56,711 bases of DNA from Schmidtea nova (GCA_044892505.1 CM097882.1:243977290-244034000); one strand, 5' to 3'; shown: positions 46,899 through 49,861, counted from the first letter of the stretch. Numbers and translations: made by a program. Notes: generated by a model from the letters alone, not told the origin.

Positions 46899-49861
46899 TT
46901 TCCCCCCACCTTGATCCCTTCTAGCGGATCAACCGACCTATTCATCTCTGGGGGGCCAACCTTCAACTTCCTGACTTTATTCTTCCACTTCGGCTTATAT
47001 TTATATCTGTCCCTGAACTTTTCTTCAGCCAATAATCCTCTCATGTTATCCTGGAAACACCCCCTCCAACATATGGACATTTTTATTTCCAGATTTACTT
47101 CTAGATTTGTTTCACTTTTATTAACTTTTCCTTCGTCCCTTTTATCAACATTAAAATTTTCCACTATTCCTTGCCTAATGTTTTCACCATTAAAAGAGTT
47201 CTCTCCAATAAGTTCCCCAAAATTACAATTTTCTTCAGTATCGCTAATATTTTCCACAATATTCTCGTCGACCATGCAGTTTTCTTTAATATCGTTAATA
47301 CTTTCTACAATTTTCTCATCGACAATGCAGTTTTCTTCAAAATTATATTCACCTACTGCTTGCCCATTTTTCACTGATATTGTAGATTCAATTTCCGTCA
47401 TTACTTCTTGCACTAAATCGTTTGAAGAAGTATTTATTCCATCTTCGCTTGCAATATCAACCGACTCAGAGTTATCAACCATTTCACCAGACACACCACT
47501 ATTCACTGCGCTATTCTTACCTCGACCTGAACTCAATTCACCATCACCAGTCCGAACCTCACCAAGAACTACTTCCTGAGCTTTAGGTGCAAAACTCTCG
47601 ATACATTCCTCTTCACACTGTTCTCTTTGACAAGTCTCCATTAACGTGTTCACATTTGGTTTCCCACCTCTTAGTGCCGTTACTCGTTCTCCACCCTTAC
47701 TCGCGTTTCGTTTTACATCATTGCAAGCGGTTGTAAAGTGTGAGTACCTCTTCCTGTCAACCTTTTCAGACGCCTTGAAGTTTCTCTGCCCGTCTTGCCA
47801 ATTGAAATCCTTTTCCTGATCAAATCCATATAATATCTCATTTGTCGCTCGTATTAGTTCGGCTTCCCTTTGCACCCACTCCTTTAACCGTTTTACTGAC
47901 TCCTCACTTTCATCTGTTGCTTGCTCTCTTTTCCATTGCATAAGTAGAGAAGCTGGCAATTTCTTTAACAATTGGTGCAATAGACAGCCTCTCTGTAGGT
48001 CCTCTTCTCTTCCAATTTCCTTAAACCGTACCTCCATGGATTCCAACAATCCAACGAAACTATCCAAGTCTTTTATTTCTCCTTCGCGAACCGGCCGAAA
48101 CTTGTCTACAGCTTCTAACATAATCAGGTAGCTACGTTCTTCACCCCCGTAACGCCTTTCCAATTTCTCTTTTGCCATCTTGTAGCCTTCGGCGGTATAA
48201 CCCAGTGGCTCTATCAATCTCAGCGGCTCTCCTAGCAAGTACTGCCTAAGATGCAGCATTTTATCTTCGGCTGTTCCATCTGCCGTATCTATTACCGTAT
48301 TGAAGGCCGCTTTCCACGTCTCAAACTCGACAACTTTCCCATCGAAAATCGGAATCTTTATTTTCTGCAACCGATTTAAACTCTTCTTTTCTCTTGGCGC
48401 CTCATATTCCGATGTCTTTGACCCCTCGCTCACAACACTTTGTTCTGTTCTTTTTTGCATTATCTTATCTATCTCTTCTTTTTTTGTTTCGAGCTCACAG
48501 ATATCTTTTTCCACTAATTCTAATTCCTCCTTCTTATTTAATTTGTCACACAACTCGACAAGTCTTAGCCACTCGTCCAATGTATCCTCAAATTCTTTCT
48601 CATATAATACCAGTGTGTCCTTTATTTCCCCGACCATTTCTGCCAACAACAAGTTACGCGCTCGAGTTACTTTCCATTTTTTAGATCGCCGACGGGTCCA
48701 TAAACTTTTAAACTCTTCCTCCTCATTACCGCCTCTTAAACGAAGAACAAGATGAAGAGTGGATTCCTTTTGTATGTTGTAATCTGCCAAGATTCTTCCG
48801 CCCTCCAATTGTTTACCCGCAAATATCAATCTCTGTTGATCAGGTGGGATTCCCTCTTTGTCTTGAATTTTCGTTTTTACCTTTTCTATTGTGTCACTTG
48901 ATTCAACTTCCAGGGTAATAGTTTTCCCTGTTAACGTTTTTACAAATATTTGCATTCCCCCTCCCAATCTCAAAACTAGACCGAGAGCTGATTCCTTGGT
49001 GGGAATAGTCGCATTTCGATTAATTAACTTAGTGAAAGCGCCGCCCCGAGTTACAATACCCAACGAAAGCGGTGTAACATCTAGCAATAATACATCAATC
49101 ACATACTCAGCAAGAACTCCTCCCTGTATTGCTGCTCCCAATACAACAGCTTCATCTCGATTCACACTCTTACTAAGAACTCTACCGAAAAGTTTCTGTA
49201 CAGTTTCTTGAACATTAGGCATTCTTGTCATCCCACCAACTACCAACACTTCTTTAATGCCCGATGTCTTTACCTCTGCATCTTTAATACCTTTTTCACA
49301 AGGTTCAATTGTTCTCTTAATTAGGTGCTCCACTGATTGTTCTAACTTTGACCGTGTGAACCTTAAACCCAAATGTTTAGGTCCTGTATTAACCATCGTC
49401 AAATATGGAAGATTAATGTGCGTTTGAATAGCTGATGACAGGTCAATTTTAACCTTTTCAGCTGCTTCTCTAACTCTCTGTGAAGCCATAGGGGCTTTAT
49501 TACCATCAACGCCTGGATCACGTTTAAATTCATTAACAATATTTTGTAACGGCACATTATCAAAATCTTCCCCACCCAAAAACGTATCCCCACTTGTAGA
49601 TTTTACTTCAAAACTATTATTCAGATTTTTTATACAACTATCTCGCTTTAGCTTAATGATTTCCCAGTTGAAACACTCATAGTTGATTTTAAATCCATAA
49701 TTTTTAACCTCTCGCCCTATCTCTCTAATCATCGCTGTATTATACATCATTTCTTTTGGAAGACACCCCTTATTCACACAAGCCCCACCCGTTTTATTTT
49801 TTCCAATTAAAGGAACAGATCTCCTAAATCCATCTGTTCTTCTGGCTATTTCGTCCCCCAA
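46796..49861 (-). CDS. Chimeric 1021-aa polyprotein: glutathione-reductase fragment (aa ~1-82), mitochondrial-type Hsp70 fragment (aa ~84-291), ubiquitin (aa 303-378), BEL/Pao Gag DUF1759-like (aa ~379-680), acidic tail, LTR-encoded hydrophobic end
   Basis: [37 protein letters not shown]...[13 protein letters not shown]...[12 protein letters not shown]; full 76-aa ubiquitin; [18 protein letters not shown]...KLERRYGG; no stop or frameshift. Confidence 0.9.
48728..48955 (-). other. Ubiquitin moiety within the chimeric ORF
   Basis: [10 protein letters not shown]...LRLRGG; differs from animal ubiquitin at P19S, N25K, A28T, D52G, T55I, S57A; all seven canonical lysines and I44 kept. Confidence 0.97.

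Follow-up and report, generated by a model that had tools for sequence, protein, structure and literature searches.

Structure of the element

A 56,711-nucleotide stretch of the Schmidtea nova genome (GCA_044892505.1 CM097882.1:243977290-244034000; hereafter the window) was found to encode, on its minus strand, an LTR retrotransposon in which a complete ubiquitin directly precedes Gag. An earlier note had proposed that host deubiquitinases (DUBs) acting on the fusion replace the missing protease, and had named three motifs, all of which were located on the minus strand: LRLGGG followed by M (48973-48956), LRLRGG followed by N (48745-48728) and LRGG followed by K (47674-47663). The last, assigned to amino acids 730-733, actually occupies residues 734-737 of the frame read from stop to stop, or 693-696 counted from the ATG at 49750.

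The 5′ LTR (TG...CA; 50173..51068) adjoined an (AAT)n tract, and its 3′ part was a variable, translated cargo region which in the window copy contained three 96-bp repeats. A leader ORF (49874..50503) started in this LTR, crossed the primer-binding site (PBS; 50151..50168, translated as GSRAWF and presumably matching an initiator Met-like tRNA) in the Gag frame and stopped at an in-frame TAG (49874-49876). Because of this TAG the 984-aa ORF of the window is a shortened form; the frames of sister copies begin in the 5′ LTR. A GSRAWF-type translated PBS motif was also present in pol-bearing families and in the outside protein P0121. The leader continued with a captured fragment (49628..49837) resembling the N-terminus of glutathione reductase (GSR), which gave no Pfam match and whose label we take from its CxxxxC motif, and with a captured Hsp70 fragment (48983..49618; model positions 208-420 of PF00012, E 2e-76), presumably of the mitochondrial type. 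This was followed by what is left of an upstream polyubiquitin unit, a decaying end (LRLGGG and M; 48956..48994) that had no ubiquitin fold, and by the complete 76-aa ubiquitin domain (48728..48955; PF00240, E 5e-28), whose terminal LRLRGG is a predicted host-DUB processing signal. The adjoining Gag (47681..48727) was of the BEL/Pao type, with a helical N-domain and a DUF1759 match (48346-47921, E 9e-11), and was truncated upstream of the zinc knuckles. The second LRGG and its K (47663..47674) lay at the deletion join, beyond which an acidic tail (46796..47662) stood in place of nucleocapsid and pol; a tblastn search of loci L101-L176 for the origin of this tail gave no match. The ORF ended inside the 3′ LTR (46898 to at least 46024, its far end lying under N); the polypurine tract occupied 46901..46920.

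The window copy had an LTR pair (TG...CA), PBS and polypurine tract, and its LTRs were 99.8% identical over 878 nt. A Pfam scan of its ORF detected no pol domain; zinc knuckles and a PR-RT-RH-IN pol, both present in the parent and sister families, were absent. The window element is young and pol-less. It belongs to a BEL/Pao LTR family of high copy number, for which first-look searches of the same genome gave 1745 and 2150 candidates, figures that are not copy numbers; it is a non-autonomous BEL/Pao derivative without full membership, as it lacks the zinc knuckles and pol. The target-site duplication was unreadable because N covers the flank at which the 3′ LTR ends. Short direct flanks were seen at L131 and L147, and many sister copies sit in (AAT)n tracts. 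As a side observation, (AAT)n/(TTA)n tracts surrounded most of the copies examined (L061-L096, L137-L148; 51069-51222 in the window), a possible target preference.

The ubiquitin-Gag junction in pol-bearing relatives

Forty pol-bearing loci, most of them picked for long ORFs, were retrieved after a search for BEL/Pao pol domains. Ubiquitin preceded Gag in 38 of the 40 and ended in GG in 36 of the 37 assessable ones; L168 and L170 gave no ubiquitin match in the retrieved stretch, where the Gag match was absent or only partial, and the ubiquitin of L164 was cut by the locus end. The loci fell into six families, one of which is the parent of the window element: its Gag was 90-92% identical to that of the window, and similarity between the two ended at 47680-47684, just 5′ of the zinc knuckles in the Gag direction. 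The pol-bearing elements encoded an ALLDD protease motif, a YMDD reverse transcriptase (RT), Peptidase_A17, an integrase and DUF5641, the protease matching Pfam Asp_protease_2 below the cut-off (E 5.5e-4). The same junction was shared by 11 outside proteins (P0121-P0123, P0125, P0134, P0137-P0139, P0141, P0142 and P0175), four of which keep only part of ubiquitin. Eleven ubiquitin-bearing RTs formed one clade (100/99) against five distant outgroups, the nearest ubiquitin-less relatives being left out of the tree, and the deep ubiquitin-bearing branches shared 48-61% RT identity.

These results bear directly on whether ubiquitin was acquired by a pol-less element to replace its lost protease. 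The window copy, with an intact LRLRGG and N and no pol, has the appearance that such an origin would give, but the junction coexists with an ALLDD-bearing pol and YMDD RT in the parent and in five other families, which refutes it. The RT identity of 48-61% also makes the fusion far older than the deletion of pol, and a retroviral-type protease would not cut at the ubiquitin-Gag site. We consider protease replacement, as put forward in the earlier note, to have next to no probability. Judged by its alignment with the parent, the window copy is a pol-less and nucleocapsid-less deletion derivative of the same ubiquitin-Gag design, and it would depend on the Gag-Pol of the parent.

Ubiquitin-less relatives were used to place the usual start of Gag. 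The best 150 Gag-profile matches were examined and 26 aligned from the profile start; five of these carried ubiquitin and one a ubiquitin tail, and 19 had, without ubiquitin, a methionine of their own 0-38 residues before the P1′ position, so that a cut at the junction would restore the usual Gag start. These relatives are called proteins, and the DNA upstream of them could still hold ubiquitin. Among close relatives of the ubiquitin-Gag proteins the named ones were ubiquitin-less proteins of Mya arenaria only. A weak profile search for long proteins returned two matches, neither with a listed ubiquitin domain, and a homologue search with ubiquitin plus Gag as the query was dominated by polyubiquitins.

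Several further arrangements were observed among these elements. Two families (L154-L161 and L165, and L151-L156) were 97% identical in RT and about 36% identical in Gag, an apparent swap of the ubiquitin-Gag module on one pol. L174 and L176 had two ubiquitin units before Gag, as did 23 further matches; in these two-unit elements the upstream unit had decayed (LCLRGG and M) and the Gag-proximal unit kept GG and N. Head-to-tail element arrays were present at G000:C1:323387501-323401639, C2:10832222-10857372 and C3:49664994-49680355; their units recur every 4546, about 4144 and 7441 bp, respectively. ORFs that began in the 5′ LTR often ran into the 3′ LTR, both in the window (46796-46898) and in pol-bearing loci, such that nearly the whole RNA would be one reading frame.

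Conservation of ubiquitin and of the predicted cleavage site

Judged by its 93% identity to a host polyubiquitin unit, the ubiquitin site of the window is not a chance motif. Ubiquitins of the window family were 92-93% identical to host units in protein and 75-82% in DNA, and they probably derive from the host polyubiquitin genes L171-L173. A separate observation concerned the ubiquitins of L131-L154, of which different families best matched different units of L171-L173 at third codon positions, a weak hint of repeated re-capture. The earlier note had asked for conservation across copies, and the junction was kept: LRLRGG and N were present in 45 of 46 window-family copies and LRLKGG and N in the other. 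G75-G76 was found in all 46, encoded by three synonymous G75 codons, and P1′ was N in all 46. Elsewhere, exceptions at the ubiquitin end were L012 (LRLGGG) and the decayed L167 (LRLCGR).

Pairwise pN/pS was calculated over 41 copies without pol, one of which (L098) keeps zinc knuckles. It was 0.15 for ubiquitin (CI 0.06-0.33) and 0.11 and 0.17 for Gag, which shows purifying selection on both. As the pS of ubiquitin to the parent equalled that within the pol-less family, the selection seen in this family may in part have been imported from the parent by recombination.

Thirteen full ubiquitins from across the clade were compared, with identities to the host unit of 29-93%, and their only invariant residues were Q2, T66, L73, G75 and G76. 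The host residue was retained at I44 in 5/13, V70 in 3/13, R42 in 8/13, R72 in 8/13, R74 in 5/13, K63 in 5/13 and M1 in 3/13, with R74 replaced by K, C, N, L, Q or Y in the remaining eight. Both glycines were kept in all 13 (P about 2.5e-6 under uniform divergence, a value that assumes independent lineages and so overstates the case). Over 17 lineages L-x-G-G was present in every one and proline occurred at P1′ in none. G75-G76 lie outside the ubiquitin fold, which Pfam still recognised at identities down to 29%. Taken together, the pattern appears to fit maintenance of a fold and a cleavage site, and not of a ubiquitin that is conjugated or bound by receptors. DUBs contact R74 of ubiquitin, and its change in 8/13 means that cleavage may be slow, or may fail altogether, in some lineages.

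An alternative is that ubiquitin is never removed from Gag, helping it to fold or offering ESCRT or other ubiquitin-binding proteins a place to dock, the GG being structural. Preservation of the fold and core residues down to 29% identity, constraint over the whole domain and the frequent change of R74 speak for it, but the I44/V70 surface has been lost in most lineages and G75-G76 is invariant. We regard permanent retention as unlikely; a folding role before cleavage is compatible with clipping by DUBs.

It had also been suggested that the cut may yield a short-lived Gag. N-E-E-E-E indeed followed the junction in the window, but this is a minority state, since 28 of the 30 top matches read N-D-E-E-E. 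A destabilising Arg/N-degron N-terminus that keeps Gag scarce would agree with the N at P1′ throughout the window family and with N or Q in 4/17 lineages. Over the 17 lineages, however, P1′ was S in seven, M in five, N in three, Q in one and G in one. S, M and G are not Arg/N-degron residues, and they account for 13/17 lineages; with S or M in 12/17, the Arg/N-degron is not a shared feature. A short-lived Gag as the point of the design therefore seems quite improbable.

The reading that we prefer, with a probability of roughly 0.7, is that members of this BEL/Pao clade translate one frame which runs from scraps of host mRNA in the LTR through a captured ubiquitin to Gag or Gag-Pol, and that host DUBs release Gag after L-x-G-G. 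For the window copy the comparative evidence makes the predicted DUB cleavage between LRLRGG and N likely.

The two other motifs fared differently. The site upstream of ubiquitin was altered, as the earlier note had reported, but its R74G change was not fixed: residue 74 was E in 31, G in 15 and R in none of 46 copies. There were 10 variants of this remnant among the 46, and over its 13 codons pN/pS was 3.1. By comparison across copies the remnant is likely dead; cargo and ubiquitin would therefore stay joined, as had been predicted.

The second LRGG had been suspected of being a chance occurrence. That it is a genuine second site which clips off the acidic tail could be argued from its position at the Gag-tail join, from its presence in 34 of 40 sisters and from its expected frequency by composition, 0.026 in the non-ubiquitin part of the window ORF. 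However, it has no ubiquitin fold, and in the nucleotide alignment it corresponds to the QQGQ codons of the parent at the deletion join. It was absent from all five parents examined and from six sisters, namely L098 and five with another join. Three of the copies without it (L075, L076 and L087) are young, with LTRs 99.7-99.8% identical, and have long ORFs of 1245-1352 aa. A second processing site is thus improbable, and the motif is likely incidental and dispensable in spite of its low expectation.

Host mRNA pieces in the LTR and the open leader

The ORF begins inside the 5′ LTR, which contains, in the Gag frame, host mRNA pieces that differ from copy to copy. When 30 non-redundant in-frame LTR segments were compared with Pfam, 21 gave a match, representing ten cargo types (Vps35, ThiF/UBA1, TCP1, HECT, prenyltransferase, DSPn, PSD13, FHA, EF-hand and an endonuclease that may derive from another element), with one further weak DUF match. 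The 150 longest of 220 segments in other frames gave six matches, five of them below the Pfam cut-off; the sole strong one, TCP1 plus HECT in L100, was a frameshifted version of the in-frame cargo of L085. Kinesin, Sec23/24 and Hsp90 were found as cargo in outside members.

Two cargos demonstrate an origin from spliced mRNA. The VPS35 cargo joined five exons that in the host gene are dispersed across about 29 kb (90-100% identity), and the calmodulin cargo of L151 comprised 48 nt of host 5′ UTR and the ATG joined to the next exon, about 53 nt being skipped. The UBA1 piece was uninformative on splicing because its match in the host is a single unbroken stretch. Not every capture includes a start codon: other cargos were internal fragments, that of VPS35 covering model positions 114-473. 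Two near-identical UBA1 loci on different chromosomes (L183 and L184) were both 98% identical to the LTR cargo of L147.

In the comparison of copies without pol, pN/pS was 1.02 (CI 0.71-1.52) for the Hsp70 piece, 0.80 (CI 0.40-1.97) for the GSR-like piece and 0.74 (CI 0.55-1.12) for the acidic tail; the internal leader is drifting near neutrality. Stops were counted in 66 copies not picked for their leader frame, which were left of 78 once identical rows had been removed. In the internal leader they made up 0/175 shared variants (6.0 expected, P 0.002) against 5/198 singletons. The deficit was weaker in 20 unpicked copies (0 against 3.5 expected, P 0.03), and purging of stops from the tail was not significant (1 against 3.2, P 0.17). 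The distance from PBS to ubiquitin was divisible by three in 69 of 76 copies, with 27 different lengths, a figure that is inflated because about half of the copies were picked for long ORFs (most pol-bearing ones, and 20 of 40 without pol). No stop interrupted the frame across the PBS in 33 of 40 sister copies; among the 20 whose choice did not depend on ORF length, this held for 14. Indel counts were unusable, since the 200 nt that follow the PBS aligned poorly. A leader that is neutral and yet free of inherited stops indicates that its frame matters and its content does not.

This combination speaks for the proposed release of Gag by DUBs. Template switching during minus-strand strong-stop synthesis would bring host mRNA scraps into the LTR, and they would then be present in both LTRs as well as at the RNA's 5′ end. 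Ribosomes would initiate within the LTR, some copies using a 5′ UTR and AUG captured from the host, and would pass through 270-660 leader codons. A DUB cut at GG would then give Gag or Gag-Pol its normal N-terminus, leaving the content of the leader free provided that its frame stays open, and the leader-ubiquitin would be discarded. The in-frame stop in the leader of the window copy counts against this course, as do the altered ubiquitin ends of L012 and L167.

Instead of being discarded, the leader-ubiquitin might be a useful product that is conjugated and disturbs ubiquitin signalling in the host, or whose cargo has an effect of its own. In the window family ubiquitin keeps R42, I44, K48, R72 and R74, and several cargos belong to ubiquitin-proteasome or chaperone functions (HECT, UBA1, PSD13, TCP1, Hsp70, Hsp90). 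Against this, the Hsp70 and GSR-like cargos are neutral, cargo varies between copies, R42/R72/R74 are not conserved across lineages, and abundant mRNAs would presumably be captured most often anyway. A useful product is very unlikely. A bolder extension of the preferred reading, clipping by DUBs, is that because the leader-encoded product would be erased, host sequence could be sampled at no cost to Gag. Capture of ubiquitin might then have enabled the clade to go on swapping pieces of host mRNAs, 5′ UTRs and start codons among them, into the LTR as interchangeable translation starts or as a self-like disguise against small-RNA silencing; we offer this tentatively and would sooner doubt it than rely on it.

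Comparison with known systems

The elements resemble BEL/Pao (Belpaoviridae) in having a DUF1759 Gag, ALLDD motif, RT, Peptidase_A17, integrase and DUF5641 in one ORF, together with LTRs, PBS and polypurine tract. They differ in the ubiquitin before Gag, the start of the ORF in the LTR and the host mRNA in the LTR. They possibly belong to the Flow superfamily of BEL/Pao, which in the available text of a BEL/Pao survey is given from planarians and cnidarians (PMC3118150). The word ubiquitin occurs 0 times in the main text of that survey, whose supplements, like Repbase entries, could mention the domain (PMC3118150). In the literature searched, mostly at the level of titles and abstracts, no description of ubiquitin-Gag in BEL/Pao elements was found.

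Non-autonomous elements with LTRs around a gag-only ORF occur in plants as TR-GAG; the window element differs from these in its animal BEL/Pao origin, its missing nucleocapsid and its ubiquitin and cargo leader. Linear fusions with a C-terminal di-Gly are also found in the host ubiquitin-fusion precursors (polyubiquitin, Ub-eL40 and Ub-eS31). Compared with those, the ubiquitin here is internal, has mostly lost M1 and has drifted in its binding and conjugation surfaces.

Cytopathic pestiviruses offer a viral parallel, in that cellular UCHs cleave Ub-NS3 according to the text available (PMC8310069). They too have captured ubiquitin mRNA, often with neighbouring host sequence, as a processing signal that yields an authentic viral N-terminus, as far as these accounts describe it (PMC8310069, PMC13517609). 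The pestivirus insertion is described there as sporadic and as bypassing the NS2 autoprotease, whereas the ubiquitin of the retrotransposons is fixed in a clade with RT identity down to 48% and, unlike that of Ub-NS3, sits behind a variable translated leader. In LTR-mediated retroposition, spliced host mRNA is joined to LTR elements, often in sense and in frame, an event attributed to template switches, and in the portion of the report available discontinuous LTR retrotransposons flank the retrocopies, which are internal (PMC5131818). In the present case it is the LTR itself, in elements with pol, that contains the pieces, and both LTRs receive a copy. Another planarian element, the Ty3/gypsy Burro/GYPSM1, has a polyprotein with host-like domains that include a Ubi2/SUMO-like one; it belongs to a different superfamily, its Gag is N-terminal and its ubiquitin-like domain internal, and the available text proposes no processing role (PMC6431247). 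Each part of the present design has a precedent, and its combination, fixed across a deep clade, appears to be undescribed.

If the preferred reading is correct, Gag maturation in this retrotransposon clade relies on a proteolytic step supplied by the host, which parallels pestivirus Ub-NS3 but is fixed over deep divergence, and the tolerance of constant host mRNA capture in the 5′ leader would be explained. With many copies in one genome, the elements would form a natural series for the study of LTR-mediated gene capture, and their drifted ubiquitins (29-93% identity) should allow recognition by DUBs to be distinguished from conjugation and from binding to receptors. Such LTRs can also be mis-annotated as copies of host genes.

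Other features of the window

An identical 300-nt stretch was present at 42595-42894 and 51752-52051, 9157 bp apart and flanking the element region. A young Ty3/gypsy element was identified at 7780-13650, with gag at 8045-9124 and pol at 9331-12507; identical 300-nt repeats began at 7780 and 12505, and an inverted pol fragment lay at 12676-13650. Host gene matches were found to a proteasome subunit (19122-19709), to ANAPC2 (20207-21046) and to ELP1 exons on the minus strand (52843-56711).
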